64,000 nt of DNA from Verrucomicrobiota bacterium (GCA_038214755.1 JBBQRQ010000008.1:19013-83012), one strand, 5' to 3'; shown: positions 2,005-21,803, counted from the first letter of the stretch. Notes: generated by a model from the letters alone, not told the origin. Made by a program: numbers and translations.

Positions 2005-2009
2005 AACCC

Positions 2010-3069: not shown

Positions 3070-4677
3070 ATGAAAACTAAACTCAAGCCCGTCACCCGCA
3101 AACTTTCCGCCAAGCGTGCGCTTGCCACCATTTCGTTACAGCCTGTCGTGCCAGTCAAAGATCGTCGTCTGAATTTTGGCGACAAATGGGATTACGCGCC
3201 CGCGCCGGAAACGGTGCCGGTGAAAATTCAGCCGCGCTACGAATTGTTCATCAACGGGAAATTCACCGCGCCGAGTTCTGGAAAATATTTTGAGTCGATC
3301 AATCCTGCGACCGAACAAAAACTTTCGGACATCGCAGCGGCGAATGGAGCGGATGTGGATGTGGCTGTGAAATCGGCGCGGCGCGCTTATGAAAAAGTTT
3401 GGAGCAAAATGTCGGGACGCGAGCGCGGCAAATATCTTTACCGCATCGCGCGCATCATTCAGGAAAAGTCGCGCGAACTCGCCATGATGGAAACGATGGA
3501 TGGCGGCAAAACCATCAAGGAAAGCCGCGACATCGATCTGCCGCTCGTGGCCGCGCACTTTTTTTACTACGCCGGTTGGGCGGATAAACTGAAATACGCG
3601 TTTCCCGGAAAAACTCCGCAACCGCTCGGCGTCGCGGGACAAATTATTCCGTGGAATTTTCCCTTGCTCATGGCCGCGTGGAAAATTGCTCCGGCCCTCG
3701 CGTGCGGAAATACCGTTGTTTTAAAGCCCGCCGAAACCACCAGCATCACCGCGATGCATCTCGCGCAAATTTTTCAGGAAGCCGAATTGCCTGAAGGCGT
3801 GGTGAACATCGTAACTGGCGCGGGCGAAACCGGCGCGGCCATCGTCAATCATCCTGAGATCAACAAAATCGCGTTCACTGGCAGCACGGAGGTGGGGAAG
3901 GCGATTGCGAAAAGCATTGCGAATAGGAGCGCGGACAGCCATGTCCGCGAGAACCAAAACGGCGGAAAACACGCGGACAAGGCTGTCTGCGCTCCTCGTC
4001 TCACGCTCGAACTCGGCGGCAAAGCGGCGAACATTATTTTCGAAGACGCCCCGATTGATCAAGCCGTCGAAGGAATTATTTCCGGAATTTATTTTAATCA
4101 AGGCCACGTCTGCTGCGCCGGTTCGCGTCTGCTCGTGCAGGAAGGAATTTTCCGGACCGTGATTCGCAAGTTGCGCGACCGCATCGCCACGTTGCGCGTT
4201 GGAAATCCGCTCGATAAAAACACCGACATCGGCGCGATCAATTCGCGGATGCAACTCGAAAAAATCCGCGAGCTGGTGCAAAGCGGCGTCGATGAAGGTG
4301 CTGAATTGGTGCAGCCGCGCTGCGCGTTGCCGGAAAAAGGTTATTGGTATCCGCCAAGTTTTCTAACGGGTGTCACCGCGTCGCATCGCATCGCGCAGGA
4401 AGAAATTTTCGGCCCGGTGTTGAGCGTGATGACCTTTCGCACACCGGAAGAAGCGTTCGAGCGCGCGAACAATACGCCCTACGGATTGAGCGCCGGCGTC
4501 TGGACCGACAAAGGCAGCAAGATTTTCAAGATGGTCAACAAACTCCGCGCCGGCGTCGTCTGGGCAAACACGTTTAACAAGTTCGATCCGACAAGTCCGT
4601 TCGGCGGGTACAAAGAAAGTGGATTTGGCCGTGAAGGTGGTTTGCAAGGACTCGCCGCTTACTGCCGACTCGACTAA
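3070..4677 (+). CDS. NAD-dependent aldehyde dehydrogenase carrying an in-frame repeat insertion
   Basis: IIPWNFP, KPAE, FTGSTEVG, LELGGK, NQGHVCCAGSR, EEIFGPV, PFGGYKESGFGREGG. Confidence 0.96.
   Translation: MKTKLKPVTRKLSAKRALATISLQPVVPVKDRRLNFGDKWDYAPAPETVPVKIQPRYELFINGKFTAPSSGKYFESINPATEQKLSDIAAANGADVDVAVKSARRAYEKVWSKMSGRERGKYLYRIARIIQEKSRELAMMETMDGGKTIKESRDIDLPLVAAHFFYYAGWADKLKYAFPGKTPQPLGVAGQIIPWNFPLLMAAWKIAPALACGNTVVLKPAETTSITAMHLAQIFQEAELPEGVVNIVTGAGETGAAIVNHPEINKIAFTGSTEVGKAIAKSIANRSADSHVRENQNGGKHADKAVCAPRLTLELGGKAANIIFEDAPIDQAVEGIISGIYFNQGHVCCAGSRLLVQEGIFRTVIRKLRDRIATLRVGNPLDKNTDIGAINSRMQLEKIRELVQSGVDEGAELVQPRCALPEKGYWYPPSFLTGVTASHRIAQEEIFGPVLSVMTFRTPEEAFERANNTPYGLSAGVWTDKGSKIFKMVNKLRAGVVWANTFNKFDPTSPFGGYKESGFGREGGLQGLAAYCRLD
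3925..3996. repeat. REP-doublet element (GGAGCGCGGAC family) inserted in frame in ALDH
   Basis: aggagcgcggacagccatgtccgcg...cgcggacaaggctgtctgcgctcct; the same family is intergenic at 21956, 29790, 37277 and 57897. Confidence 0.9.
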
Positions 4678-4689
4678 ATCGCAAAATTC

Positions 4690-5356
4690 TTGTTGTCATC
4701 TGTGAACGAAGCCGTGTGCGAATTCCCATTCCAAATCAAGGCGGAAGGCGCAGCGCAAATGGCGACGCTGCACTTTGCGACCCAAGTCGAACTACGTCGT
4801 TATCATCGCAGCCTGTCGCCATTCGCGCGCGAGGCTTCCACAGTCGTTCGGGAAGCCGTCGAATTCACCCGGCTTGCCGCCAAACGGTGGCGTTATTATT
4901 TCCACACTGATGAAGCCGCCGAGAGTTTTGCCGCTGCAACGCGAAATTCACCGCCACCCAAAATGCGAAGTCGCCTTCATTATGGTTGCCACGATTCGGC
5001 AGGCGAACCGCGACTTGCCGGTTGACCTCGCCTATTGCCGACGAACCTGGTGTCATCACCTTGCGCTTGATTTCCTCGCGTTGCATCCGGGCGCGCTGGC
5101 GCGAAACTGGCGGGTGAGCGGCGTAGGCAGCGGCATCGTATTCGGACTGGTTCAATTGGCGAACGCGTTGAACATTTCGCGCATCTGGGGCGAGGCCACG
5201 GTGAATTCTGCTCCGTTCTACGAAAAGCTGCTGGCCGTTTCTCCCGTTCAAGATTTGTTCCTCATCGAAGCGCCGGAGATGGCGGCCATTACCAAACGGC
5301 AGGAAAAAATCAGCCATCCAACTCTTGTCACCAAAACCACAACTGAACTACATTGA
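4690..5356 (+). pseudogene. GNAT-like acetyltransferase split by a frameshift near 4932
   Basis: ORFs 4690-5025 and 4775-5356 join as ESFAA/LQREIHRHPK; the C-terminal half has LDFLALHP..VSGVGSGIV..EATVNSAPFYEKL. Confidence 0.55.
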
Positions 5357-5367
5357 CGCCGTGACAG

Positions 5368-5558
5368 TGAAACGCACAAAGCCAGTGAGCCTTGAAGAAC
5401 TCTGGGATTACGAAGCAAGGCATCCCGTGGTCTTCGCCTCGCCTCGTGCCTTGGCCGATGCACGGTTGATTGCCAAACTGGAGCGCACGACACGGAATCA
5501 CCGTCGCAGCACACACCGCAATGGTGTTGCCCATCGCCGTAAAGCCGTGTCCGCCTGA
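5368..5558 (+). CDS. Small basic hypothetical protein, possible partner of the GNAT; start uncertain
   Basis: ORF directly after the GNAT stop, ending just before the ALDH remnant. Confidence 0.35.
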
Positions 5559-5565
5559 AAAAGTA

Positions 5566-5663
5566 GCGCTGGCGTCGTCTGAGCGAACACGTTCAACAAA
5601 TTCGATCCGACAAGTCCGTTTGGTGGATACAAAGAAAGCGTCTTCGGTTGCGAGGGTGGACTG
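5566..5663 (+). pseudogene. Orphan diverged copy of the ALDH 3' end (matches 4547-4644)
   Basis: Colinear 98 bp, AGVV*ANTFNKFDPTSPFGGYKESVFGCEGGL, mostly third-position differences. Confidence 0.92.
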
Positions 5664-5682
5664 AATTTGAATTGGATTTTCC

Positions 5683-6252
5683 ATGCCGACTTATATTGCA
5701 ATGCTGCGCGGCATCAATGTCAGCGGGCACAAGACGATCAAAATGGCGCGTCTTCGTGCGTCATTCGAGGAGTTGGGATTCAGCGATGTCGAAACTTATA
5801 TTCAGAGCGGCAACGTCATCTTCAGAGCGGGGCAGGAATCCGCAGCCAGCTTGTCCAAACAAATTGGAGGAAAAATTTTAAGTGATTTTAGTTTCTCAGT
5901 TCCTGTGCTGGTCAAAACAGCGAATGAGATGGGTGAGGTCGTGAAAAAGAATCCGTTTTTGAAGGATGGGGGAATTGACCCGTCCAAATTGCACGTCACT
6001 TTCCTCTCGAAAACCGCGCCGCAAATGGCTGAAAAAATTCTGGAGACATTGGCCGCGAAGTCCGAACGATTCTGCGTTTGCGACCGGGAAATTTATCTCT
6101 ATTGCCCAGATGGATACGGCAACACCAAACTTTCGAACAGCGCCATTGAAAAAAAGTTTTCAGTCCAGGCCACCACTAGAAATTGGAAAACGGTGAATGT
6201 CCTTTTGGCGAGATGTTCGTTTGCAAAACAGAAACTGGTTGGAGAAAAATAG
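5683..6252 (+). CDS. DUF1697 family protein
   Basis: YIAMLRGINVSG, VETYIQSGNVIF, TTRNWKTV. Confidence 0.92.
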   Translation: MPTYIAMLRGINVSGHKTIKMARLRASFEELGFSDVETYIQSGNVIFRAGQESAASLSKQIGGKILSDFSFSVPVLVKTANEMGEVVKKNPFLKDGGIDPSKLHVTFLSKTAPQMAEKILETLAAKSERFCVCDREIYLYCPDGYGNTKLSNSAIEKKFSVQATTRNWKTVNVLLARCSFAKQKLVGEK

Positions 6253-6363
6253 AACACTCAATTCCAATTGGCGGTGTCCTAATTAATCCAAATTAGGACA
6301 CCGCCCGGCTTCCCACTGGTTTGACGATTTTCGTAAATGGTGGATAGATTGTGTCGAATCTTC

Positions 6364-7914
6364 ATGAGCCCTCCTCTCTCATTGAATGCACGCTGTGCCC
6401 TTTCGCGATGGAGCGCGGGTATATTCTTCCTCACCGCGCTCGCCGTCGCGGGCGCAGACTGGCCGCAGTATCGCGGTCCCAATCACAACGGCGTTTCAAC
6501 CGATCATCTCAATACACAATGGACCGGCTCTGTAACCAATCCGTTGTGGCTGGTTTCATTCACCAACGGTCTTGGCAGTTTTTCAGTCAGCGGAGCAAGG
6601 GCTTTCACCCAGGTTCGCCGCACCACCAATGATCTCGAAAAGGAATTCTGTGTGGCCTTAAGCAGCGCTAGCGGAACTGAACTCTGGGCGACGATGGTGG
6701 ACGACGGCGATTATCCTGACTTCGGCGTGGGCTTTACCGACGACGGACCGCGCACGACACCAGCCGTCGATGGTGACTCGGTTTATGTGTTGTCGTCCTA
6801 CATCAAATTGTATCGGCTCAATGCCGCCAGCGGCGCGGTGATCTGGCAAAAGGATTTACGGGCAATCTATGGAGGGGAGGTCATCGCGTGGCAAAATGCA
6901 GCGTCACCCTTGATTGAGGATGGGTTGATCTTCGTCAACGCCAACTGTGGGACTTCAACCTTGATGGCATTGCGCACGAGTGACGGAGAACCAGCGTGGC
7001 GCTCGCAGAACGAAGCGATGACCCACGCCACGCCGGTGCTCGCCACCATTCATGGAGTGCGGCAAGTGATCTTTGCCACCCAAAGCGGCCTGGTCTCTTT
7101 GAATCCCCAAACGGGAAATTTGGTGTGGAGATTCGATTACCCGTTTTCCTACACCACTTCACTCGCAGCCTCACCCGCAGTAGATGGAGACATGGTTTTC
7201 GTTACCGGCTTTTACGGGATGGGTTCGGTCGTCGTAAAAATCCTCAACCCGAACGGGACATTCGTGCCGACGCAACTTTGGTACAATGCGTCGCTGCAAA
7301 GCCATTGGTCCACGCCCGTCTGCTATCAGGGATGTCTCTTCGGGCAATTCACGCCGGACGGCGCGAACGCCCAACTGAGATGCATCGACATGGCGAGCGG
7401 CAGTTTGAAATGGGCGGTGAACGGTTTCGGGCGTGGCAGCGTGTCGCTGGTGGGCAATCATCTTCTGGCCATCACGGAACGCGGTCAATTGGTGGCAGCC
7501 CAACCGAACACAAATACCTACACCGAGGTCGCACGTTTTCTGGCAATTCCAGGTTACAACGATGGCGGAAATAAATGTTGGAACTCTTTGGCGGTAGCTG
7601 ACGGAAAAGTTTTTGTTCGTAGCACGGCCTACGCCGCCGCATTTGATCTTTCGCTGCCAGCTCTCAAATTGGATTCGCCCCAACTCGAACCGGCCAACAA
7701 GGTTCAACTCACCATTCGCACTGTCAACGGAACTCCCGTGAACTCCAACCGGCTGGCGGGCTTGTCGGTGCGATCCACCACCAATCTGGCGCTCTCGCCT
7801 TCACTGTGGCCGGCGCTCACCAACAATCTGGTGCTCAGCAACGATGTGCTGCGGGTGGGCGGCGTCGATGCAAAACCGCCCATACAGTTTTTTATCCTGG
7901 ACGAACTACAGTAG
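6364..7914 (+). CDS. Secreted PQQ-binding-like beta-propeller protein with C-terminal extension
   Basis: Signal peptide followed by ADWPQYRGP, GPRTTP and repeated G..xW blades. Confidence 0.88.
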   Translation: MSPPLSLNARCALSRWSAGIFFLTALAVAGADWPQYRGPNHNGVSTDHLNTQWTGSVTNPLWLVSFTNGLGSFSVSGARAFTQVRRTTNDLEKEFCVALSSASGTELWATMVDDGDYPDFGVGFTDDGPRTTPAVDGDSVYVLSSYIKLYRLNAASGAVIWQKDLRAIYGGEVIAWQNAASPLIEDGLIFVNANCGTSTLMALRTSDGEPAWRSQNEAMTHATPVLATIHGVRQVIFATQSGLVSLNPQTGNLVWRFDYPFSYTTSLAASPAVDGDMVFVTGFYGMGSVVVKILNPNGTFVPTQLWYNASLQSHWSTPVCYQGCLFGQFTPDGANAQLRCIDMASGSLKWAVNGFGRGSVSLVGNHLLAITERGQLVAAQPNTNTYTEVARFLAIPGYNDGGNKCWNSLAVADGKVFVRSTAYAAAFDLSLPALKLDSPQLEPANKVQLTIRTVNGTPVNSNRLAGLSVRSTTNLALSPSLWPALTNNLVLSNDVLRVGGVDAKPPIQFFILDELQ

Positions 7915-7924
7915 GAGGTAATTG

Positions 7925-8695
7925 ATGAAGACGAAATTATTTGCGCGCTCATCGAAGAACGTCGCCTTTACGCTCATCGAGCTTTTAGTGGTGATTGCGA
8001 TCATCGCCATTCTGGCGGCGCTGCTTCTGCCATCGCTCGCCGGCAGCAAAGAAAAAGCGCGACGCACCAGTTGTAAGAGTTCCGAGCGCCAACTTCTTTT
8101 GGCCGCGCATCTTTATGGCGACGACAATTTGCAGCGTCTGCCCAGTGGCGCGCCCAACAAACCGATGCCCGAGGATGACGATCATCTGCCCGTAATTAGT
8201 GGCGCGACCAGCAACGCGTTTGTGCAATACCTGGGCCATGAGCGTATGGTTCATTGTCCAAGCTTCGCGGATTATTTCGTGAAGAAACAAACCGAGCGTC
8301 CGTTTGAAGAGCGCCAATACGGCTACGTCATTGGTTACAACTATCACGGCGGTCACTCGAAAACACCGTGGAAACCGATGCCCGGTTTCGACGCCACATG
8401 GGTTTCGCCACAACGCCTGACTGATTCGGGTACGCTGGTTTTGGTGACCGACATGAATGACTGGTCGCCACTCTATGGAAAGAGTTTTACCGCGCATGCC
8501 AAGAGCGGCCCGGTGCTCCAGGAAGTGGACGACGCCAGCCCAAGCGGCCCTGCTCCGTCTGCCGCCGCTATCGGTTCGACGGGTGGGAACATTGGGCTGC
8601 TCGACGGCTCGGTTTCCTGGAAGAACATTCAAAAGATGCAAACCTATCGTGGTTCACAAAAGTGGGACAACGATGGCTGCTGGGCGATGTGGTGA
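7925..8695 (+). CDS. Prepilin-type N-terminal cleavage/methylation protein (PVC DUF1559/H-X9-DG-like)
   Basis: [38 protein letters not shown]. Confidence 0.9.
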
Positions 8696-8703
8696 AACTT
8701 GTT

Positions 8704-8964
8704 TCAGCGATAAATCTCCCGGCGATGCCCGACCGCAACCACCAGAACAACCAATTGTTCGTCCCGGATTTGGTAAATAATGCGGTAGTCACCGACGCGA
8801 ACTCGATAAACATTTTCCTCGCCAGATAGTTTCACGCAGCCGGAGGGTCGCGGATTTTCCCCCAAGCTGCGAAACGCCTGCGTCAAACGTTGTCGCAAAG
8901 ATTGATCCCGCAATTTCTCCAGAAATTTCGTGGGTGTAGCGGCGATGCGAACCGTGTAATTCAC
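8704..8964 (-). CDS. RelE/ParE-family toxin
   Basis: NPRPSGCVKLSG, YRVRVGDYRIIY, VGHRREIYR. Confidence 0.93.
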   Translation of the reverse strand: MNYTVRIAATPTKFLEKLRDQSLRQRLTQAFRSLGENPRPSGCVKLSGEENVYRVRVGDYRIIYQIRDEQLVVLVVAVGHRREIYR

Positions 8965-9161
8965 ATTCCGAGACGTTGTTCCAGTTCGTCAACGGTGATG
9001 CATTCACCGGGATGGGCGAGGGTGGCGCGCGCGGCTTTGAGATCCGCGTCGTTTTCGAGCGTCTCCAATTCCGCTAGATCATCGATTAAAGAAACGACCT
9101 TGTTGGCTCTTTCCACGGAAAGATTTTCCAATTTCGCCACAGCTTCCAGAACAGTGCTCAT
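8961..9161 (-). CDS. Putative antitoxin cognate to the RelE
   Basis: Acidic 66 aa, LENDADLKAARA..ITVDELEQRLGM, 4-nt overlap with the toxin. Confidence 0.82.
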   Translation of the reverse strand: MSTVLEAVAKLENLSVERANKVVSLIDDLAELETLENDADLKAARATLAHPGECITVDELEQRLGM

Positions 9162-9241
9162 GAGTTTATTCTGCCTGGATTAAAACCTTTCTTCAAGCGC
9201 GGCGCATTATTGATTCTCTCACCGTTTCCAAAACATCCTTT

Positions 9242-9361
9242 TCAAAACTTTACAATCTTTCCGCATTTCATCGCCTCCTCACCCGCAATCGCCAGTAAAG
9301 TTGCGTCCACACAATTTTTTACGGACGTGAGCGACTCTCGTTTTGCCAAAATGCATTTCAC
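9242..9361 (-). pseudogene. Orphan diverged copy of the Gfo/Idh/MocA 3' end (matches 10109-10228)
   Basis: VKCILAKRESLTSVKNCVDATLLAIAGEEAMKCGKIVKF* versus VKCILEKSEPLTSVKNCVDATLLAIAGEEAIRKGEIVKL*; 31/39 aa identical. Confidence 0.93.
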
Positions 9362-9436
9362 AGTTTCGGGTGGGTTTCGTCATAGTCGAGATGGTGGCAC
9401 CCACGAAGTTCATTGTTCAGATGAAGGGATAAGTTT

Positions 9437-9787
9437 TCAGATATAGATCAATTGGTTTTTCATTTCCTCGCGAGACGTGGTGTTGAGAATCCCCAGCACA
9501 CGCCGCGCGATCTGTGCCGGCGGACGGCGCACAGCAATAACGATCCCAAAATGCGTTTTGCCGAGTTCAAAATATTCTCGGGCCAAGGCCTCAAAATCTC
9601 GGCGGTTATGCGTCAAAATTGTTTTCCCAGCCTCGGCTGCATAGCTTAACTGTTGGGCATCTTCCGCTTCATTCATCCCCGCCATCTGTGTCGTTGTGAA
9701 AGAGTAGAAGCCGCGAGCTTGAACAAGTTTTCCAATCAACGGATCAACGTCTTCATCCAAATGCAACTCAATAGCAGGTCCCGTCAC
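9437..9787 (-). CDS. DUF5615 PIN-like toxin
   Basis: LHLDEDV, DAQQLSYA, ILTHNRRDF, HFGIV. Confidence 0.88.
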   Translation of the reverse strand: MTGPAIELHLDEDVDPLIGKLVQARGFYSFTTTQMAGMNEAEDAQQLSYAAEAGKTILTHNRRDFEALAREYFELGKTHFGIVIAVRRPPAQIARRVLGILNTTSREEMKNQLIYI

Positions 9788-10065
9788 AGGTGTTTGACTC
9801 GGGGGTCAATCCATTCATCCGGAATGCGATTGCGTTCAATGTAATTATGGATTTCTTCCTGATGATCGCTGTAATAACTGAGGGCATCAAAAATTTGTGC
9901 CATGGAAAGGTGTGGCACCGACTGTAGAATTTCTTCCGGGCTTTTTCCCATACGCCAAATTTCTACAATCGCGCGCACTGTCACCCGCGTGCCTTTGATG
10001 ATTGGTTCCCCGCCCGCGATTTTTTCGTTCCTGCCGATGTAACAATGTTCTGTGGCCGTTGTCAT
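9784..10065 (-). CDS. DUF433 antitoxin
   Basis: IAGGEPIIKGTRVTV, PHLSMAQIFDALSYY. Confidence 0.92.
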   Translation of the reverse strand: MTTATEHCYIGRNEKIAGGEPIIKGTRVTVRAIVEIWRMGKSPEEILQSVPHLSMAQIFDALSYYSDHQEEIHNYIERNRIPDEWIDPRVKHL

Positions 10066-10108
10066 AAATCCATTGTGCCTTTGCGGACACCTGTCTTCAA
10101 GCGCCGCA

Positions 10109-11146
10109 TCATAACTTAACTATTTCTCCTTTTCTAATGGCTTCCTCACCCGCAATCGCCAGTAAGGTTGCATCCACACAATTTTTCACGCTGGTTAGCG
10201 GCTCAGATTTTTCCAAAATGCATTTCACAAATTCGAGGTGGATTTCATCGAAGCCCAGATGATTTCCCCAGCCTTCGCCGAAATTCGCGGCGACTTTGCG
10301 GATGATCGGTTCTTTCTGATTTGTTCCGCGTTTCCATTGCAGAATTTCGATTTGCGAAATGCGCGTTTGCAAGATGCCGCCGTCGCCGATGATTCCCATC
10401 TCCAAATCTTCGTGGGGAAAATCAAGCGCGAACATGCAGAGTTGATGCGTTCCGAGAACGCCATTTTCGTATTCAAAACTCATCGTGACGTGATCGTGGA
10501 CTTGATGCGGCCCTTCGATCACGCGATTGACCGCGTTCCCGCCGAACGCCGCGACACGTTTTGGTTTTGAGCTGACCCACCAGTTCATCAAATCGAAGTG
10601 ATGACAATTTTTATCGACGAGCGCGCCGCCGGAGCGGCGTTCATCCTGAATCCAATCCCGAGATTTTTTTTGAAACGGCCCGCGAAATTCTTTGCACCAA
10701 ACCATGCGGGGCGCACCGATTTCTCCCGCATCGACGAGCGATTTTATTTTCTGGAAAAACGGCGAGTAACGCAGTTCGTGGCCGATCATTATAACGCGAT
10801 CCGATTTTTCCGAAGCGGTCAGAAGTTTCTGACATTCCTCCCGCGTGATGCCACACGGCTTTTCGAGAAACAGATGCTTTCCTTCGCGTAAAATTTCGAG
10901 CGCGAGCGGGACGTGCGTAAAATTAGGAGTGGAAACGATGACGGCATCGAGCGGTGAAGCGATGAGTTCAGATTCGTTTTTGAAAACTTTTACTTTTGAT
11001 GAAAGTTCGAGAGCTTTTTTGATGTTCGCGTCGTTGGAAGAACAGATGGCGGCAATCTCGATTTGTTCGCCGCAAAGTTTTGCGAACGAATTCACGTGGC
11101 TGAACCCCATCGCGCCCAAGCCCAGAAAACCGAATCGCAGTTTCAC
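10109..11146 (-). CDS. Gfo/Idh/MocA-family oxidoreductase
   Basis: GFLGLGAMG, VSTPNFTH, LEKP, GGALVDKNCHHFD; GTG start chosen. Confidence 0.93.
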   Translation of the reverse strand: MKLRFGFLGLGAMGFSHVNSFAKLCGEQIEIAAICSSNDANIKKALELSSKVKVFKNESELIASPLDAVIVSTPNFTHVPLALEILREGKHLFLEKPCGITREECQKLLTASEKSDRVIMIGHELRYSPFFQKIKSLVDAGEIGAPRMVWCKEFRGPFQKKSRDWIQDERRSGGALVDKNCHHFDLMNWWVSSKPKRVAAFGGNAVNRVIEGPHQVHDHVTMSFEYENGVLGTHQLCMFALDFPHEDLEMGIIGDGGILQTRISQIEILQWKRGTNQKEPIIRKVAANFGEGWGNHLGFDEIHLEFVKCILEKSEPLTSVKNCVDATLLAIAGEEAIRKGEIVKL

Positions 11147-11211
11147 TTGAGAAGTAAATCCCACAACGTTTGCCGTTTGCAATTTCCATCCTGGCGCGAA
11201 ACACTTTCTCG

Positions 11212-12501: not shown

Positions 12502-12608
12502 AATTAAAAGGGTTCTCGCGATCACCTTCACGGACAAATCCTTTTTATCGCTTTGGATGCGAGACGCGGAATTGACCCTCTGCACGGGAAGTGCTACCTA
12601 CCTCGCTA

Positions 12609-12863: not shown

Positions 12864-13147
12864 TCCGTTTGTCTCCGCAAGTTAACGCCTACATTAAAAC
12901 GCTTCCACCGGAGACCCGCCGAAAAGTTCGGGACGCCTTGCGCGGGTTGGAGCAAGGTCAAGGAGAGATTGCCCCGCTCCAGAGGCAACTCGAAGGTTAT
13001 CACCGCCTCAAACTTCCGCCCCGCCGGGTAATCTTACGCTATCAGGAAAGCTCTCGCGGCCCGGAATGCTATTGCGCCTTCATCGAAATGCGCGACGTGG
13101 TTTACGAAGCTTTTGCCGCCATTGTCTCCGGGCAAGAACATATCTAA
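12860..13147 (+). CDS. RelE-like toxin
   Basis: LEGYHRLKL..RVILRY, RDVVYE; 4-nt overlap with the antitoxin. Confidence 0.8.
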   Translation: MIRLSPQVNAYIKTLPPETRRKVRDALRGLEQGQGEIAPLQRQLEGYHRLKLPPRRVILRYQESSRGPECYCAFIEMRDVVYEAFAAIVSGQEHI

Positions 13148-13231
13148 TCGAACACGGTCCAAGTTTGTCGCCTTATTCCCAGTGCCGGACTCAGCGCTTG
13201 TGTTTGGTTAGCGCGACTTTAAACTGTCTTT

Positions 13232-13495
13232 ATGAAAACGCTGACCGCCACCGAAGCTCGCCAGAATATTGGCAACTGGCTTTCTCGTGCCATCAAAGGC
13301 GAAGACATCGGGATTGTTTATGAAGGGAAAGTTGTCGCGCTTCGTCCCGTGGAAGTTTACAGCGAGGATTACGCCATGATGGAATACGGCGTGACCGAAC
13401 AAGAATTAAAGCGTTTCGATAAAAAAATGTTGAAACAACTCCAGAATGAAAAATCCAACCTCTGGGACGGAACCGCCAATGGCCTTCGCGGTTGA
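13232..13495 (+). CDS. Phd/YefM-like antitoxin
   Basis: MKTLTATEARQNIGNWLSRAIKGEDIGI. Confidence 0.82.
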   Translation: MKTLTATEARQNIGNWLSRAIKGEDIGIVYEGKVVALRPVEVYSEDYAMMEYGVTEQELKRFDKKMLKQLQNEKSNLWDGTANGLRG

Positions 13496-13766
13496 ACCGG
13501 GCACTACTTGGAAACGCTGGGCGAAACACCGCACGAACGCCGAACTTCAAGCCATCTCCGAACGGCTGGAGCAACTCAAAGAAGATTTCGGCAAACCGCA
13601 CCAACATGCCGGCCTTGGGGTCCGGCGTTTGTCTCAACATTTTTTTGAGTTTAGAATCTCCCGCGACGTGCGCGTCGTTTTCGCATTGATCAAACCAAAC
13701 ATCATTCGTCTGGCTATGTGCGGCAATCACAATGAAGTCAGAAACTGGATCAAAGAAAATTCTTAA
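13479..13766 (+). CDS. RelE/YafQ-like toxin
   Basis: PHQHAGLGVRRL, FEFRISRDVRVVF, GNHNEV; overlaps the antitoxin. Confidence 0.78.
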   Translation: MAFAVEPGTTWKRWAKHRTNAELQAISERLEQLKEDFGKPHQHAGLGVRRLSQHFFEFRISRDVRVVFALIKPNIIRLAMCGNHNEVRNWIKENS

Positions 13767-13801
13767 TCATTGGGATTGTCGCGATGGATTGGACATTCAA
13801 A

Positions 13802-14030
13802 TCATGCCTTCAACTTCGCGATCAAATCCTTGCTCTCCACCGTATCCCCGACTTGCGCGAAGATTTTATCCACTGTTCCGTCCGCCGACGTTGCCGAAAT
13901 CGCGGTTGAATTTTGTAAACTCAGCAAAAACTTCGGGATACATCAAATGGCTGTAAAGATCATCCTCGGTCGCCTCGCGTTTCAATTTGCCGGAAATTTC
14001 TTCGCGAACTTTTTTCAAGTTGGCGGGTCT
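13802..14030 (-). pseudogene. Orphan diverged pyc 3' end with a ~365-bp internal deletion
   Basis: NLKKVREEISGKLKREATEDDLYSHLMYPEVFAEFTKFNRDF joined out of frame to SADGTVDKIFAQVGDTVESKDLIAKLKA*. Confidence 0.95.
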
Positions 14031-14053
14031 GCAATGCGCGCTCGGACGGTCAA

Positions 14054-15042
14054 TCAACGTTCCTTTATCCCAGTAAAAAATACGATTGTTTCGACTTTTT
14101 CCTGCCACTTCAAATTACCTTGCCACCGCAGCAGTGGCGGGATGACTTTTTGAAATTTTTCGGGGGCGTCCTCGAAATAAATCACTTCAACATTTTCCAA
14201 TTCAAGAATAGCGGACTTGTCGGCCTTGACGATTTCCCAAAAATCAGACTCCCTGAGAGCAAATATCTCTTTGCAATCAGCGAACATTTTTATTTGCTCT
14301 GCCAGCGATGCGACTCGGATGTTTGAAAGTGGTTTGGTTGCACGAGCCGTCAACTCAACCTGATGGAGTTTCCCGTTGATTCCAAACCCGACTCGCAAGC
14401 CGCCGTAGTAATGCCCAGTCACAACTCGATACCCATCAATCGCGCGCCGGAAAAATACATGCCGGGAAACGACGCGCGTCGGTTTGTTGTATGAGTCGCG
14501 TTCTGTTTTTTCAAAGACGTAATCCAACCTCTCCGCGGTAGGATGTTTCATCAAATCCACATCTTTATTCAGTCCAAGAAGCTGCGCCATTTCCAATCCG
14601 CGTCGCACGGTTTCTTCTTCTCCCGGTGCTGCTCCGGTAACATTAGTGATTGCGCCAAGACACCGTATCGAATCCATCCTTGGGCGGGGATAATCGTCAG
14701 CGTGTGTGTCTGTTCCAAACTTCCATAGTATTTAACTCCCGGAGTTCCGAACACTCCTCGGTTATTTCCTTTGAAAGTCTTTTGTGAATCAAGCCCTCCC
14801 ATTCTCAAAAGAGTAGCGATGGTTGCTGGCGATAACTGACGCGGGACGACGCTCTGCACTGCGATCTGGTCAGGAATTTTGCATCTCAGCAGTTCTTTCG
14901 TGGAAACGACTTTGGGGCAAAACCGCACCGGCTCGCCTAAACTTCTTAATGCTTTGCGAGAGGCCTGCTCGTAATCCGAAGCCAACGCTTGCCCAACCGA
15001 CAGCCATACCACCAAAAGGCTGCAACTCCATCGCGTCATCAT
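14054..15042 (-). pseudogene. Secreted hypothetical protein (FTP/PepSY/YcdB-like features) split by a frameshift near 14660
   Basis: Signal-peptide ORF 15042-14569 overlaps ORF 14677-14054; RHVFFRRAIDGYRV..GLRVGFGINGKL. Confidence 0.5.
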
Positions 15043-17318
15043 TGCGGCGTGTAAACGGTTGTCTTGTCGAAGTGAAGATTTTCAACTGAGCGACCGGCCA
15101 AACTGAAATTGGCTGAGAAGGGCTGGAATCTGTCGGTTAAGGTGTAAGCTCCGCTTTCTTGGCGAGCGTCCCAATATAGATAGCTCATTATGACCGTATG
15201 ATCGATCAGAGGTTTTCCCCTTTTTCGGCGGCTCTCATTTTCAGCCGCGTGCGCGCGTCGCCCGGCTTCCACCCAGGCGTTGATGACGGTCATAGGTGTG
15301 CCGTTTAATTCTCCTTGTAGACCTTGCGCCCAAAGCCTGCCCATTGTTGGGTAAATGTAGATGGTCGATCCAGTGGCAAGATACACATTCAAGGAAGCGC
15401 TCATCGGCCAAAAGCCCCGTTCCTTCACACCCCCCGCCCAACGGGTTTGCGTCAAAGCATTGCACCCGTAGTAGCCCATCCACTTAAGAAATTGGCTTCC
15501 GAATCTCATTTCCGCATCGGGAACCCATGTGTAACCATTGGTGTTCTGGCTGCTGTTGTACAAAGGATAGCTTGCCAGCGAACCAAACGTCCCTGAGGGC
15601 CAGCCGGGTGGATTATATTCAACGGTGTGTCCGGCTAAAATGCCGATGTTACAGCCCGAATTAAATTTGCTGTTAAGCGAATTAATTCCCTGAGGAGTCT
15701 TGCCCGCGCCCACAAGATTGGTTTTGGTGAGTGCATCATCAATCAGATGAAAATTATTCCTCCAAGAAGGAAATTTCGTGGATTTCGCCCCCTGCGCCAT
15801 TTTATCTATGAACCCTTTTGCAACGGCCGTTGCGTTCTGTAGCGGCCCATACGCCCACGCCGTTTTAGGATGATGCCCCTGCGAACCTGCGCCAGTCACG
15901 CCGACAAACGACATTTGGGTGCGGCCGGGCTCTCGGTGAGGATCTCGGGTGGTTTGATTAGTTTGGCTTCCTGCAACCGCAGGTTGAAACGCATCGAGAT
16001 TTTCTGATGATAACGTGGTGGGTTCGATTGAACTTTTCGCAACGGCTGGAGTTTTCTGAAAAGAAGGATTAGCGCTTAGTTGAGCGATCATGCCCGGCGG
16101 CAGCGGTGGCAACTCCGGCTCCATTAGTTGGCTACCCCGTGCAGCTTCATTAGCTTTTAATGCGGCCTTGCGTGCCACAAACCACGGAACCCGCTTCGCA
16201 CGATGAGCAAGAGCCGAAGAAGCAGCAGAATCTATTGGCAATGGAATCGAGAAATAGCCATTTTTAATTGGTTTTTCTACAAATGATTTTGCTCCTTCGA
16301 TGGCGGAACCTGACTCAGTGCTCTGCAATGACCCCGGAGCCGGTGGCGGGTCACTCGGCGGTGAATTCGTGTCTTCGCCTTCGCTGGATTGGCCCCCTCC
16401 AATAACCGCTGCGGTCAAAATGTAATCATAATATCCCGGCGGATAAAAATTGTTAAAGCCGTCGGAGCCGTCCCATTCCCCATAGATTTCCGTTCCCGTG
16501 CCCGTTATCATTTTTACCGTATTCTCATTCTCGTCCACGATTTCAACGCTCCAATCGCAATTAAGAACAAGGTTTGCGTAAACGATTTGCTCTTCTGGAA
16601 AAGAAGGATCAAAAGGATCAAAGAATGGATTCACAATAGTGAAGTCTTGAATCAAATTATCGAAATGAAGCGTGATTGGCGCAGAACATCCGACATCGAG
16701 ATTGCCGCTGGTGTCGTCACCTGCGCCGCCCGTCGTTTCCCCGGACGTAGCAAGTTCAACGGTGGCATGGATTACATGATCTCCATTAATCCATTCGCAT
16801 GTATTTATGGAGAACTGGAAAGAATCAACGTCCGTTTCTTCATCGACTCGTTGTCCGTCAACATAGAGGCGAATCCAACCTACCTGATTGGTTGTGTTAA
16901 CGGTTACTTCGACGATCAAATTGCTGCTGACTGTCGCATTGTTCGTTGGCGCAACGATGGAAATCGAAACAGGCGCGTTCGTGGATTGCGCGACTTGCCG
17001 CACTCGATAAAAACGATGAGGCCTGTCAGCGGGGTGAAGGATTCGGTTTAACGCAGTCGGGTCACCATAATCGAGCCACGTCGTATTTGTGCCTTGCGAA
17101 ACAATGCGTTGTTCCCTCGGGATAAACGCCAAATTGCCATCCTGATCTACTGCCGAAAGATTTCCCACAGACTGAACCTCATACACCGCGCCGGTTTCAC
17201 TCTGCCAATGCAGTTGAATGGATAAATCGTCGAAGACGCGAGGCTGTTTGAGCACGGGTTGCGCGAGAAGCGGCGAGGCGGCGATTGAGAAGAGAAGAAT
17301 GAGTTGGTTACGTTTCAT
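15039..17318 (-). CDS. Secreted multidomain protein: Ig-like, FlgD-like and C-terminal DUF6345-like domains
   Basis: Signal peptide MKRNQLILLFSIAASPLLA; IRLYVDG; WDGSD..YPPGYYDY; GILAGH...FGSQFLKWMGYYGCNAL. Confidence 0.75.
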   Translation of the reverse strand: MKRNQLILLFSIAASPLLAQPVLKQPRVFDDLSIQLHWQSETGAVYEVQSVGNLSAVDQDGNLAFIPREQRIVSQGTNTTWLDYGDPTALNRILHPADRPHRFYRVRQVAQSTNAPVSISIVAPTNNATVSSNLIVEVTVNTTNQVGWIRLYVDGQRVDEETDVDSFQFSINTCEWINGDHVIHATVELATSGETTGGAGDDTSGNLDVGCSAPITLHFDNLIQDFTIVNPFFDPFDPSFPEEQIVYANLVLNCDWSVEIVDENENTVKMITGTGTEIYGEWDGSDGFNNFYPPGYYDYILTAAVIGGGQSSEGEDTNSPPSDPPPAPGSLQSTESGSAIEGAKSFVEKPIKNGYFSIPLPIDSAASSALAHRAKRVPWFVARKAALKANEAARGSQLMEPELPPLPPGMIAQLSANPSFQKTPAVAKSSIEPTTLSSENLDAFQPAVAGSQTNQTTRDPHREPGRTQMSFVGVTGAGSQGHHPKTAWAYGPLQNATAVAKGFIDKMAQGAKSTKFPSWRNNFHLIDDALTKTNLVGAGKTPQGINSLNSKFNSGCNIGILAGHTVEYNPPGWPSGTFGSLASYPLYNSSQNTNGYTWVPDAEMRFGSQFLKWMGYYGCNALTQTRWAGGVKERGFWPMSASLNVYLATGSTIYIYPTMGRLWAQGLQGELNGTPMTVINAWVEAGRRAHAAENESRRKRGKPLIDHTVIMSYLYWDARQESGAYTLTDRFQPFSANFSLAGRSVENLHFDKTTVYTPQ

Positions 17319-17471
17319 ATTTAAGTTTTTTTTGGAAATCCATACGAATCCTCGCTCGGCAATTTTCACGGTTGCGCGGCCACTCTCCGCGGTCTGCGTA
17401 AGTGAAGCAAGCACAAAACTTAGCCTGCGGGTTATGGCCGGTTTTTTTGCTGCTTGTTTCTGTAATCGCCC

Positions 17472-17714
17472 GTGTCAGAAATTCCACAACATCGACTTGC
17501 CGTCGCCAAAACGATTCGCAAGTATCGGCTCAAAGCGGATTGGAGTCAGGAAAAACTCGCAGAAATGGCGGACCTTCATCCCGTTCATATTAGCAATCTG
17601 GAACACGGGAAAAAAAATATTTCTTTGGACACGCTCGTGAAAGTCGCCGACGCGTTGGGAGTTCAATTGTCCCAGTTGGTTCGCAATGTTCAGCCAAAAG
17701 AGAAGAACGACTAG
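17472..17714 (+). CDS. XRE-family HTH regulator
   Basis: IRKYR..WSQEKLAE..ISNLEHGKKNISLDTLVKVADALGV. Confidence 0.92.
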   Translation: MSEIPQHRLAVAKTIRKYRLKADWSQEKLAEMADLHPVHISNLEHGKKNISLDTLVKVADALGVQLSQLVRNVQPKEKND

Positions 17715-17805
17715 AGGCGTGGGATTGTATCTCCGGTAAACGACTTGCGATTTTAAGTGGGTGTAACTGGTATATGACACACGTTCGGAATCGGCGCTTT
17801 GATTC

Positions 17806-20800
17806 TTATCCCTTCAACTTCACGATCAAATCCTTGCTCTCCACCGTGTCGCCGACTTGCGCGAAAATTTTGTCCACCGTCCCGTCCGCTGACGCGTAAA
17901 TTGTCGTCTGCATTTTCATCGCTTCCATCGTGAGCAGCTTGTCGCCTTTCGCCACTTTCGCTCCAACGGTGGCGTTGACTGTTGTAATCAAACCGGGAAT
18001 CGGCGCGCCGATTTGCAATGGGTCGGCGGGATCGGCTTTGAGACGCGGCTTGGTTTTTGGCTGGACAGAACGATCTTGAATTGCCGTTTCGCGCGACATG
18101 CCGTTTAATTCAAAGGTGACAATTCTGCGCCCGTCCTTGTCCACTTGTCCGATGTTGATGAGACGAATAAAAAGCGTTTTGCCTTCTTCGATGTCCACGG
18201 AAACTTCCTCGCCCGGTTTCAGTCCATAAAAAAAGGCGGGAGTCGGCAACACGCCCACATCGCTGAAATCGCGATTGAATTTTGTGAACTCAGCAAAAAC
18301 GTCGGGATACATCAAATGGCTGTAAAGATCGTCTGCGGTCGCTTCGCGTTTCAATTTCCCGGAAATTTCTTCGCGAACTTTTTTCAAATTCAGCGGTTTC
18401 AAATTCGCGCCTGGCCTGGTCGTCATCGGCTTTTGATTTCCCAAAACGACTTGCTGCAATTTTTTCGGCCAGCCGCCAAGAGGTTGTCCGAGATTGCCCA
18501 TGAGCATGTCGATGACGGACTCGGGAAATGGCGTGGCGCCCGGTTCCAAATTCAAAACATCCGCCGGCTTGATGCCGCGCGTGATCAAAAACATCGCCAT
18601 GTCTCCGACGACTTTGCTGCTCGGCGTGACTTTGACAATGTCGCCGAAAAGTTGGTTTACCTCGGCGTAAGTGCGCGCTATTTCCGGCCAGCGATTTCCC
18701 AGACCCATGCTCGCCGCTTGCTCCTTGAGATTCGTGTATTGGCCGCCCGGCATTTCGTGCAGATAAACTTCCGCGCTGCCACTGCGCGGGGCGGTGTCGA
18801 ACGGTTTGTAAAATTGCTGAACGTGCTCCCAGTAATCGGAAAATTCATCGAGCGTTTCCAAATTCAATTCGGTGTCGCGCGGAGTATTTTTCAGCGCGGC
18901 CACGAGCGAATTCAAATTCGGCTGGCTCGTTGAACCACTCATTGACGCAATCGCCAAATCCACCACATCCACATTCGCGTCGCTGGCGCGCAAAATTGCG
19001 GAGGCGTTGATCCCGCTTGAATCGTGCGTGTGAAAGTGAATGGGAATTCCGATTTCTTCTTTCAACGCTTTGACCAATTGAAAGGCGGCGTACGGCCGGC
19101 ACAATCCGGCCATGTCTTTGATCGCGAGAAAATGCGCGCCCATCCGTTCGAGTTCCTTCGCGAGGTTCACATAATATTTCAGAGAATATTTTGTGCGCTT
19201 CGGGTCGAGAATATCGCCGGTGTAACAAATGGCCGGTTCGCAAATCGCCCGCGTTTTCTGCACCGCCTCCATCGCGACTTTCAAATTCGGCGTGTAATTG
19301 AGCGAATCGAAAATCCGAAAAATATCGATGCCCGCTTCCGCGGAATGCTTTACAAAACCGGCGACGACATTGTCGGGATAATTGGAATAGCCCACCGCAT
19401 TCGAGCCACGAAAAAGCATTTGGAAACAGATGTTGGGAATGCGTTCGCGAAGTTGGCGGAGCCTTTTCCACGGGTCTTCGTGGAGAAAACGCATCGCGGT
19501 ATCGAAGGTCGCGCCGCCCCACATTTCCAAACTGAAAAGTTCCGGCGTGCGGCGAGCCACTGCGCCTGCAATCGCGAGCATGTCGTAGGAACGAACGCGC
19601 GTGGCGAGGAGCGATTGGTGCGCGTCACGAAACGTAGTGTCGGTGATGAGCAAACGTTTTTGTTTCAGCGTCCATTCGGCAAATTTTTTCGGGCCAAGTT
19701 CAATAAGGAGTTGGCGCGTGCCCTTCGTTGGAATTTGTTTGTGGTCGTAAGTAGGAGGAGTCGCTGGCGTCAGCGCCTTTTGCGGGAGGTAACCTTTGGC
19801 TTGCGGATTGCCGTTGATGATGACGTCGCCTAAAAAATTCAGAAGCTTGGTCGCGCGGTCGCGGCGCGGCTTGAACTTGAACAACTCCGGCGTGGTGTCG
19901 ATGAGTGTAGTGGTCGCAAATCCATCGCGAAAAACTTTGTTGTGAATGACATTCTCAAGAAAGGGGATGTTCGTCTTGACTCCGCGAATTCTGAATTCCC
20001 GCAAGACGCGATCCATGCGTTGCAGCGCCATGTGAAAATCCTGGCCGCTCGCCGTAATTTTCACGAGCAATGAATCGTAAAACGGCGTGATGACAGAACC
20101 GGCGTAACCCATGCCGCCGTCCAAACGAACACCAAAGCCGCCCGCTGATCGATAGGTCAAAATTTTTCCGTAATCGGGCGTGAATTTATTTTCCGGATCT
20201 TCCGTGGTGACGCGGCATTGCACGGCGCAACCGTTGCGTGGAATTTTTTCCTGAGGCGGCAAATTAATTTCCGGCCCGTGCAAAGCGAATCCTTGCGCGA
20301 TCAAGATTTGCGCCCGCACCAAATCGATTCCCGTGATGACTTCGGTCACGGTGTGCTCGACCTGGATGCGTGGATTCATCTCGATGAAAAACCATTCCTT
20401 CGAGTCGAGGTTGTAGAGAAATTCAATCGTGCCCGCGTTGTCGTAACGAACTTCCTTCGCCATGCGCACCGCCGCGTCGCAAAGTTCACCGCGCACTTTT
20501 TCGTCGAGAGCAATGGACGGAGCGATCTCGATCACTTTTTGGTGGCGGCGCTGCACGGAGCAATCGCGTTCGTGCAGATGCAAAACATTTCCGTGTTTGT
20601 CGCCGAGGATTTGCACTTCGATGTGTTTGGCGCGCGGAATATATTTTTCCAAAAACACGGCGGAATTTCCGAAAGCGCGTTCGGCTTCACTGCGCGCTTC
20701 GTCGAGGAGATTTTGCAAATCGCCCGCTTTGTGAACGACGCGCATCCCGCGTCCGCCGCCACCGAAAGCGGCTTTGATGATGAGTGGGAAACCAATTTCC

Positions 20801-21318
20801 TTCCCGATTTTCAGGGCGGTGTCGCGATTTTCAATCGGCTCTTCCGTCCCCGACAAAGTCGGCACGCCGATTTTTTTCGCGAGACCGCGCGCGGCCGTTT
20901 TGTCGCCCATCAATTCGAGCAGTTCAGGACGCGGGCCGACGAAAACGATTCCTGCCTTTTCGCAAGCACGAGCGAACTGCGCATTTTCCGCGAGAAAACC
21001 GTAGCCGGGATGAATGAGGTCGATTTCTTTTTCTTTGGCGAGCGAGACAATTCCGTCGATGTCGAGATACGCGCCGACCGGCCCTTTGCCCTGGCCAACG
21101 AGATAGGCTTCATCGGCTTTGAAACGGTGAATGGAGAGTCGATCTTCCTGCGCGTAAATGGCGACGGTGCGCAGACCGAGTTCGGTGGCCGCGCGAAAAA
21201 TGCGGATGGAAATTTCACTGCGATTGGCGGCGAGCAGTTTTTTAAAAGGGCGGTTTGCTGAAGCTGGTTTTTGCTCTGGGGAAGTTTTGGTTTTGCTCAC
21301 AGCTTTTTGCGCGGACAT
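17806..21318 (-). CDS. pyc: Pyruvate carboxylase
   Basis: Biotin carboxylase (ANRSEI, HPGYGFLAEN, RDCSVQRRHQK), carboxyltransferase (RDAHQSL, IKDMAG, HFHTHD) and biotinyl domain (EAMKM). Confidence 0.98.
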   Translation of the reverse strand: MSAQKAVSKTKTSPEQKPASANRPFKKLLAANRSEISIRIFRAATELGLRTVAIYAQEDRLSIHRFKADEAYLVGQGKGPVGAYLDIDGIVSLAKEKEIDLIHPGYGFLAENAQFARACEKAGIVFVGPRPELLELMGDKTAARGLAKKIGVPTLSGTEEPIENRDTALKIGKEIGFPLIIKAAFGGGGRGMRVVHKAGDLQNLLDEARSEAERAFGNSAVFLEKYIPRAKHIEVQILGDKHGNVLHLHERDCSVQRRHQKVIEIAPSIALDEKVRGELCDAAVRMAKEVRYDNAGTIEFLYNLDSKEWFFIEMNPRIQVEHTVTEVITGIDLVRAQILIAQGFALHGPEINLPPQEKIPRNGCAVQCRVTTEDPENKFTPDYGKILTYRSAGGFGVRLDGGMGYAGSVITPFYDSLLVKITASGQDFHMALQRMDRVLREFRIRGVKTNIPFLENVIHNKVFRDGFATTTLIDTTPELFKFKPRRDRATKLLNFLGDVIINGNPQAKGYLPQKALTPATPPTYDHKQIPTKGTRQLLIELGPKKFAEWTLKQKRLLITDTTFRDAHQSLLATRVRSYDMLAIAGAVARRTPELFSLEMWGGATFDTAMRFLHEDPWKRLRQLRERIPNICFQMLFRGSNAVGYSNYPDNVVAGFVKHSAEAGIDIFRIFDSLNYTPNLKVAMEAVQKTRAICEPAICYTGDILDPKRTKYSLKYYVNLAKELERMGAHFLAIKDMAGLCRPYAAFQLVKALKEEIGIPIHFHTHDSSGINASAILRASDANVDVVDLAIASMSGSTSQPNLNSLVAALKNTPRDTELNLETLDEFSDYWEHVQQFYKPFDTAPRSGSAEVYLHEMPGGQYTNLKEQAASMGLGNRWPEIARTYAEVNQLFGDIVKVTPSSKVVGDMAMFLITRGIKPADVLNLEPGATPFPESVIDMLMGNLGQPLGGWPKKLQQVVLGNQKPMTTRPGANLKPLNLKKVREEISGKLKREATADDLYSHLMYPDVFAEFTKFNRDFSDVGVLPTPAFFYGLKPGEEVSVDIEEGKTLFIRLINIGQVDKDGRRIVTFELNGMSRETAIQDRSVQPKTKPRLKADPADPLQIGAPIPGLITTVNATVGAKVAKGDKLLTMEAMKMQTTIYASADGTVDKIFAQVGDTVESKDLIVKLKG

Positions 21319-21384
21319 AAAGTTCGCGTGTTTATACGGGCGAAAGCCGGGTTTGGCAAAATTTTTCCGGGAAAACTGCCGGTC

Positions 21385-21741
21385 AAGACTGCGAGTCCGT
21401 TGAGTCTTCTGACACAGAGAAAAAGCGTCTCCAATCCTGAGCGGCGTGAAGAATCCGCACCACCATGATTGTCGCTTGAAACGGCTGATAAAAAATCAAG
21501 CAATTGCGAAATTGCGGCACGACGATCCAACGGATTTTCGCATGACGAGGAGCAGCGTTGCGAATGCGATTCCCAATTCAGGATGTTGAGCGAGCAAATC
21601 GGCGCTATCGAGGATCACTTGACGGACGCGTTGGGCAGCTTCGAGGTTATCCGCGCGAATCTGGTTGGAGATATTTTCCAAGTCGTTCTGCGCTTTCGGG
21701 CTAAGTTTAGCACGACTCGAATCTCTGTTAACGCGACGCAT
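21385..21741 (-). pseudogene. Orphan ParE-family toxin, frameshifted near 21572
   Basis: LSPKAQNDLENI..LLAQHPELG continues in another frame as RIRNAAPRHAKIRWIVVPQFRNCLIFY..IMVVRILHAAQDW. Confidence 0.8.
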
Positions 21742-21749
21742 CCAATTTC

Positions 21750-21803
21750 AGAATGGAAATTTCACTGCGATTGGGCGCTAAAAAAATTTCCAACGCGCGC
21801 GCC
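21750..21803 (-). pseudogene. Orphan remnant of the pyc 5' end
   Basis: 22-bp exact match of 21753-21774 to 21206-21227; FLAPNRSEISI versus LLAANRSEISI. Confidence 0.75.

Follow-up and report, generated by a model that had tools for sequence, protein, structure and literature searches.

Elements that integrate at icd (prophage e14 and phage 21) or at prfC (SXT) provide their target gene with a new end and leave its former end behind as a piece of pseudogene. Restriction-modification (RM) genes have been reported to be inserted with long target duplication, in tens of cases over many genomes and mostly in naturally competent species (Furuta, Abe and Kobayashi, 2010; PMC2853133). C-terminal ends of rhs genes are displaced (Jackson et al., 2009; PMC2935791), as are, sequentially, effector–immunity modules belonging to type VI secretion systems (T6SS) (Kirchberger et al., 2017; PMC5361080), and a circle integrated by a single crossover or homology-facilitated illegitimate recombination (HFIR) has been proposed in these papers. 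In an E. coli conjugation test, 56 of 60 clones carried a duplication of the lacZ end (109–950 bp in 14 sequenced) derived from a trimmed circle, which was commoner than HFIR (PMC3240628). Here, a 64,000-nt stretch from a Verrucomicrobiota bacterium (positions 19013–83012 of contig C8 in genome G000; hereafter the window) is described, in which short cargoes, often toxin–antitoxin (TA) modules, lie between an intact host gene and a diverged copy, or remnant, of that gene's own end. With a probability of roughly three in four, these loci and their counterparts elsewhere in the genome are scars left where genes of related species were acquired without a recombinase, by one homologous crossover and one illegitimate joint.

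The loci share with the RM insertions, as outlined in that report, variable direct repeats of >30 bp, an insert of <20 kb, no mobility gene, an intact target and an empty site in a relative (PMC2853133). While the RM repeats are mostly near-identical and are read as duplications, the copies here are diverged alleles under purifying selection, the cargo consists mostly of TA or small unknown genes, with no methyltransferase and a few lone nuclease domains (Uma2, HNH, GIY-YIG) among 150 cargo proteins, and about 70–80 hosts are found in one genome. As at the rhs and T6SS loci, the incumbent end is shunted outward with its former neighbours, leaving variable fragments and arrays with no integrase (PMC2935791, PMC5361080). 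Those systems concern a polymorphic toxin, whose new tip is the payload and is accompanied by an immunity gene, whereas here the ends of ordinary genes, both 5′ and 3′, are equivalent alleles and serve only as homology anchors. In the E. coli test, too, one-sided homology to a gene end gave an insert flanked by an end copy of variable length, although that was a laboratory event (~4e-9) with identical homology (PMC3240628), and the present events are natural and fixed, between alleles about 85% identical. Integron arrays, with which a comparison is made in PMC5361080, are similarly rich in TA modules and have the newest unit nearest the anchor and older ones outward. Unlike in integrons, however, no integrase lies nearby, a k-mer comparison of the junctions showed neither a shared k-mer nor a repeated attC-like site, and the units are set apart by remnants of coding genes, each landing pad being another coding gene; the word "integron-like", used in a first-pass annotation of this window, thus holds as an analogy only. 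Neither an integrase nor a fixed att site, as used by e14, phage 21 and SXT, was found here. The class of mechanism and the anatomy are already known from RM, Rhs/T6SS and lacZ, while the genome scale at housekeeping genes appears to be new: in a full-text search, outside which most subscription papers lie, no paper turned up in which both ends of housekeeping genes are displaced by TA cargo across a genome. Microcystis TA genes between direct repeats were considered as the same phenomenon and set aside, as the repeats described there are identical and intergenic, not gene ends (PMC7935541).

The first-pass annotation had proposed four such layouts within 19 kb, at an aldehyde dehydrogenase (ALDH) gene, a Gfo/Idh/MocA oxidoreductase gene and both ends of the pyruvate carboxylase gene (pyc), with a miniature fifth at ctaF. 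The features are as follows, in window coordinates.

3070–4677, + strand: intact aldehyde dehydrogenase, host gene (PF00171, E 8e-157)
4678–5565, + strand: cargo 1, overlapping open reading frames (ORFs) 4690–5025 and 4775–5356 and a 77-aa ORF 5325–5558; no Pfam match
5566–5659, + strand: ALDH 3′ remnant, 83% over 94 nt against 4547–4640
8704–9161, − strand: ParE-type toxin 8704–8964 (PF05016, E 7e-16) and small partner ORF 8961–9161 (no Pfam match), beyond the Gfo/Idh/MocA remnant
9242–9393, − strand: Gfo/Idh/MocA 3′ remnant, 78% over 153 nt against 10109–10261, with one frameshift
9437–10065, − strand: cargo 2, DUF433 and DUF5615 pair (PF04255, PF18480), presumably of TA type
10109–11338, − strand: intact Gfo/Idh/MocA oxidoreductase, host gene, the real start probably further in (PF01408, PF22725, PF02894)
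12522–12543, − strand: perhaps a third, faint copy of the end of pyc, absent from the first-pass annotation, 19/22 nt (local search, E 0.004); may be chance
12591–13147, + strand: small two-gene module, no Pfam match
13232–13766, + strand: Phd/YefM-like antitoxin and partner (PF02604, below cut-off)
13804–14021, − strand: two-piece remnant of the pyc 3′ end, about 90% (self-alignment)
14054–17714, − strand: cargo 3, a 791-aa protein (Big_7, DUF6345) and two downstream ORFs, with an XRE-type HTH gene at 17472–17714 on the + strand
17806–21318, − strand: intact pyruvate carboxylase, host at both ends (86–91% aa identity to full-length congener copies)
21496–21741, − strand: cargo 4, lone ParE-like ORF (PF05016 positions 2–48 of 89, the first half of the profile only)
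21753–21800, − strand: remnant of the pyc 5′ end, a local alignment of 47 nt that includes 22 identical nt in a row; weak by itself
35421–35688, + strand: start of ctaF (COX4_pro), with palindromic repeat pairs, nested in one another, flanked on both sides by a 26-nt copy; a miniature case and weak by itself

The ALDH, Gfo/Idh/MocA and pyc 3′ cases were confirmed, with some correction. The ALDH remnant, which contains a TGA stop, ends at 5659 and so lacks roughly the final 37 nt of the gene, and the Gfo/Idh/MocA remnant runs farther than had been claimed, to 9393. The pyc 3′ copy is not one colinear piece, as had been stated: 17808–17894 matches 13804–13890 (90%) and 18252–18390 matches 13883–14021 (91%), and between the two about 360 nt have been deleted, with an overlap of 8 nt at the joint. 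The remaining two cases are present and weak by themselves, the exact pyc 5′ match being 21206–21227 against 21753–21774 (E 0.002, window self-search) and the ctaF copies (35421–35446 and 35663–35688) agreeing at 22 of 26 nt, under the self-BLAST threshold. As for the cargo, the overlapping ORFs 4690–5025 and 4775–5356 look like one frameshifted, possibly GNAT-like gene; the GNAT that had been claimed there has an Atlas lead (0.91 to a cluster with 58% GNAT members) and nothing in Pfam. The ParE-type pair at 8704–9161 may be an older cargo, the module at 12591–13147 is TA-like to judge from its size and overlap, and no antitoxin ORF of at least 60 aa was called between the ParE-like ORF of cargo 4 and the pyc 5′ remnant.

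The anatomy recurs throughout the genome of this uncultured sediment bacterium, an assembly of 5.1 Mb in 175 contigs that is 97% complete; its gene families and close DUF433 matches also point to a Verrucomicrobia-like affiliation. For 4189 genes called by a trained hexamer model, self-BLAST was performed per contig with high-copy repeats masked, and pairs within 6 kb were kept when one copy, but not its partner, fell inside a gene of 450 nt or more. Copies of the 3′ third were found downstream at 58 genes and those of the 5′ third upstream at 21, against 9 genes with the wrong polarity, 11 for the middle third and 7 inverted; no direct copy was found at 12–30 kb. The 79 polar against 9 anti-polar genes give a binomial p of 4e-15, and the 5′ class taken alone (21 against 5) a p of 0.002. 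An exact-match test with 16 nt on 2274 genes supports the 3′ events (32 vs 8) and hardly the 5′ events (9 vs 6). The genome-wide enrichment that had been predicted is thus present, and it is polar. Since the host lists contain at least two hosts that are long remnants themselves (ilvD and an M3 peptidase) as well as several probable paralog fragments, a fair figure is about 70–80 hosts. A family scan, covering 70 of the 84 hosts obtained under a slightly wider rule (100 segments, used for the divergence and junction statistics), included gatA, purB, deoC, galK, accC, a gyrB/parE-type gene, pheT, glyA, recF, ilvD and acs, together with nadA, ftsK, gltX, thrS, nuoE, nuoF, lipA and apt. The claim that ordinary genes act as hosts therefore stands for many core genes; the Gfo/Idh/MocA gene, for which no DNA match in eight congeners was found among the matches listed (137 weaker ones lay outside), is probably not one of them.

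The cargoes are short and diverse, with a median of 741 nt. The remnant starts at a median of 132 nt from the gene end, inner boundaries range over 62–493 nt (10th–90th percentile) and the duplicated parts, which are diverged, over 35–468 nt. By hand count, a TA-type family, the DUF families among which are presumably to be labelled so, is present in the cargo of 26 of the 69 hosts with scanned cargo, and ORF6N, Uma2, HNH, GIY-YIG, TIR, Wadjet and secreted proteins are found in others. Of 27 DUF433 loci, 6 lie inside cargo, which accounts for 2.4% of the genome; relative to this rough background p is 4e-5. An array is present at thrS (L061:381–10700), where five remnants alternate with TIR, Phd-PIN, Gp49-HI1420 and other cargo, and at L067:1774–9074 the DNA that separates a host from its remnant, 7.9 kb off, encodes Wadjet (JetA, JetD and others) as well as ORF6N.

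Resident and remnant ends are alleles, with a signature of purifying selection between the copies. Over the 100 segments, pooled pS is 0.363 and pN 0.076, giving a dN/dS of 0.16 (bootstrap 0.136–0.193), not near 1, and differences fall at codon positions 1, 2 and 3 in 358, 271 and 963 cases. The mostly synonymous divergence noticed earlier holds for the ALDH and pyc pieces (pS 0.33–0.67, pN 0.03–0.04) and less so for Gfo/Idh/MocA (pS 0.43, pN 0.16). A stop is present in 7 of the 100 segments and an apparent frameshift in 43, the latter inflated by edge gaps. The median identity between resident and remnant is 85%, while that of whole genes to the sampled congeners is 75–79%, suggesting that the donors are mostly unsampled closer species. 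The longest exact run in 81 segments is 29.1 nt against 24.4 when permuted (14% at p<0.05), compared with 16.9 against 16.3 (4%) in control orthologs. This modest excess is compatible with a crossover inside the repeat and leans slightly that way, but later gene conversion would look alike.

Which copy is older can be read from the congeners. In 15 testable events, that is, those whose host end is present in the fetched congener DNA, the DNA beyond the remnant adjoins the host in a congener in 7, and the cargo does so in one clear and one doubtful case. As beyond-remnant DNA often adjoins the intact gene, the remnant is taken as the displaced older end. When six further loci were searched in five congeners, 5 of 7 host ends agreed with displacement (apt, nadA, purB, ilvD and pdhB): for each, one congener or more has an intact gene that runs into sequence lying past the G000 remnant, and at apt, nadA and pdhB empty or near-empty sites exist in relatives. 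At pyc, the TA-like module at 13232–13766 follows the remnant in G000 and the intact gene in G004 and G005; in G003 it follows a different pyc remnant, and in G005 the module is itself followed by a pyc remnant, while cargo 3 was unmatched beside pyc in every congener locus fetched. Remnants of pyc were also found in G003, G005 and G024, and the inner boundaries of pyc remnants differ from species to species (about 590, 111, 84 and 116 nt). The thrS arrays are common to G000, G003 and G007, parts of the G000 array being shared with the other two. Iterative landing is borne out by the five thrS remnants and by the TA modules that lie past remnants here and beside the intact gene elsewhere, and the proposal that cassettes are acquired by swapping termini with relatives is supported, none of the three refuting outcomes named in the first-pass annotation having been obtained. 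One cargo is found across species: that of deoC (about 280–300 nt) is 94–95% identical in G000, G005 and G007 and absent in G001. The last 100 nt of deoC are likewise 94–95% identical among the three, dropping to about 80–90% further in, against a median gene identity of 75–79%; the cargo–remnant joint is common to G005 and G007, the flanks differ right past the remnant, and the G000 remnant is longer. The pattern fits a bracketed unit that may have spread into different backgrounds, the other possible reading of these alignments being shared ancestry with later change.

The range of the habit was surveyed in 20-kb tiles taken, non-randomly, from contigs with earlier matches. Polar cases numbered 21 in 1.2 Mb of G000 (with 6 anti-polar and 6 inverted), 2 in 240 kb of G005, 4 in 111 kb of G007 (3 being doubtful domain repeats), none in 40 kb of G003 and 1, doubtful, in 392 kb of G001; eight order-level genomes gave 1 in 1.2 Mb. 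G000 is thus an outlier, and the habit is patchy in the genus and rare in the order. DUF433 counts show the same trend (27 in G000, 17 in G007, 15 in G005 and 2 in G001). At 80 DUF433 loci of other taxa (540 kb), no polarity was found in an automatic tally made without repeat masking or trained gene calls (10 loci 3′-downstream, 6 5′-upstream, 11 5′-downstream and 3 3′-upstream). Six loci that bracket a DUF433 gene by eye (L101, L113, L133, L150, L166 and L168) are a post-hoc lead only. In L168 (146–1035), a Bathyarchaeia record, the DUF433 gene is bracketed by a 122-nt, 94% identical copy of the adjacent ORF's 3′ end.

These features can be accommodated as follows. A fragment of a relative's DNA, carrying the end of a shared gene and its neighbour, often a TA module, would enter through a single crossover between homologous stretches of that gene together with a single illegitimate joint, presumably upon transformation and in a RecA-dependent manner. 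Either the fragment would be trimmed, circularised and integrated by a single crossover, or the joint of an HFIR event would fall inside the same gene, so that HFIR, as put forward in the first-pass annotation, would be one of two routes giving such anatomy. The host gene would gain a new end and stay intact, while the older end and its former neighbours would be pushed past the cargo and decay, and repeated rounds would stack the cargoes. Because only events that restore a whole gene would survive, 3′ copies are expected downstream and 5′ copies upstream, and the combination of a crossover with an illegitimate joint would yield variable boundaries, allelic copies, displaced flanks and stacking. 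A bracketed cargo would also possess two homology arms for one gene, and might spread by them to empty alleles through ordinary recombination.

Four other explanations were weighed. The copies may have arisen by local duplication of the gene end followed by decay, as published for RM genes, whose insertions often have repeats across a start or stop codon (PMC2853133). Resident and remnant pyc copies of one genome are often mutual nearest, and one case, pdhB, has an identical 41-nt repeat, which count in its favour. However, orthologous gene ends between G000 and its congeners have a dN/dS of 0.073 (207 pairs), from which a simply decaying local duplicate would give about 0.54 or more, and the observed 0.16 implies, as an arithmetic estimate, that roughly a tenth of the divergence is post-displacement. 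Rescuing duplication needs a later interspecies exchange of the resident end, which comes close to acquisition by crossover itself, and duplication as such is improbable. Strain-chimeric assembly of a metagenome bin is hardly credible. It is true that the assembly is in many contigs and that the only run containing the stretch (X1), a sediment metagenome, is probably the assembly's source sample. Single X1 contigs with 0 differences and a depth of 21–24 nevertheless cover 4389–7396, 8591–13961, 13932–18145 and 20622–21882, so that the ALDH, Gfo/Idh/MocA and pyc 3′ remnants are each bridged by one unbranched contig. A mis-join is thereby excluded, though as a re-assembly check and not in an independent sample; moreover, the cargo–remnant joints are non-homologous and congener assemblies show the same anatomy independently.

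The anatomy, including the synonymous divergence of the ends, is also that expected of site-specific integrative elements that restored the target end and then decayed with loss of their integrases, and a few cargoes, such as Wadjet, are several kb long. This would require dozens of target specificities and the loss of every integrase, for cargoes with a sub-kilobase median. Of 179 cargo entries, the scan covered 150 proteins (those <2.5 kb within the loci fetched), and it gave no match to a transposase, an integrase or any other recombinase. The absence of an integrase, claimed for the window, extends to its contig, on which no tyrosine or serine recombinase was found, nor PF00589, whose nearest match to any event is about 11 kb off, on C73; the 5 tyrosine and 1 serine recombinase matches in the genome all lie outside cargoes. 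The five thrS remnants and the pyc remnants of four species start at different positions, indicating no fixed att core, and variable boundaries at the same gene largely refute decayed elements, which are thus quite unlikely. An enzyme acting in trans, for example a transposase of the HUH type associated with repetitive extragenic palindromes (REP) or a cargo nuclease that opens the target, has in its favour 17 Y1 transposase matches (some within very long reading frames), the high-copy 15-mers, from several palindromic families, that make up 3.4% of the genome, repeat-rich cargo in four short-gap events and ctaF, and HNH, GIY-YIG or Uma2 nucleases in some cargoes. Against this, the cargo families are mutually unrelated, 77 of 78 cargoes occur just once in the genome, and no junction motif was found (the top 6-mer occurs in 8 of 100). 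REP-like repeats are seen at 5/100 and 14/100 junctions, more rarely than after the average stop codon (33% of 2722), and this depletion led to rejection of an origin by REP transposase. A dedicated enzyme of this kind is held to be unlikely.

Several observations weigh against acquisition by one crossover and one illegitimate joint. In 6 of the 15 testable events neither flank lies beside the host in congeners; ALDH is a case in point, the congener DNA showing neither the remnant-side flank nor the cargo beside the host, and phoH2 was not syntenic in the congeners searched. In the comparison, which was with congeners, the crossover point and microhomology at the joint were not seen. Divergence does not differ between the inner half of a remnant and the outer, so that no gradient is seen (p 0.36), and an identity of about 85% is low for efficient exchange by RecA. 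The last 79 nt of pyc are not grouped by the TA module that follows, and the mutual nearness of the pyc copies within a genome counts here as well; the pyc-end identity matrix was dropped as a direction indicator because it is uninformative. An apparent pyc remnant in G013 was discarded, since the sequence concerned is located beyond the stop codon and does not derive from pyc. Polar remnants are missing at 21 of the 27 DUF433 loci in G000 and at 28 of 30 DUF433 loci of the genus cut at 1.5 kb (5 of the 30 from G000). ComEC is present in G000, but also in 10 of 14 control genomes.

Stand-alone chromosomal TA modules are described as mobile, and their fixation as not understood (PMC2654758). 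On the question of how they enter genomes when no mobile element carries them, some 70–80 scars in one genome offer a countable signature. As a tentative idea, more doubtful than not, the TA modules here may be enzyme-free mobile elements: after one rare illegitimate event, the bracket would allow excision, integration and crossing between species by host recombination. If so, any conserved gene end could serve as landing pad, and TA and defence genes may generally spread in bacteria and archaea along this path, which would have been overlooked. Foreign alleles can form the ends of marker and essential genes (parE/gyrB type, thrS, pheT, gltX and recF), a matter of concern for phylogenies, and remnants of this sort are readily mistaken for att sites or pseudogenes.

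Some minor features of the window were also noted. A palindromic repeat pair sits in frame within the ALDH gene, near 3920–4000, where the stretch in G001 is much shorter and one X1 contig skips 3882–4000. Between deoC and ALDH (10–3068) lie a helicase and another gene, presumably RecQ-like and DprA-like from their motifs, which were not matched by anything in the ALDH loci of the congeners and were probably acquired. A promoter behind the Gfo/Idh/MocA end and its remnant was considered from a TTGAAG-17-nt motif seen by eye and rejected, the motif being missed by a consensus scan whose counts equalled those of shuffles. The two ORFs at 14054–15042 in the pyc cargo overlap by 108 nt and may be one frameshifted gene. 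Genes for tRNAs or other RNA families were rejected as insertion targets: an Rfam search of window positions 1–40000 gave no match, and the one tRNA, at 46412–46487, is unrelated to the events. At 22231–22440 stands, by itself, a 5′ piece of a gene for a planctomycete cytochrome c protein, its best other copy in the genome being 80% identical over 125 nt, on C28, and 22691–28441 encodes a 1916-aa protein with repeats of about 318 nt (DUF7507, CARDB and DUF11).

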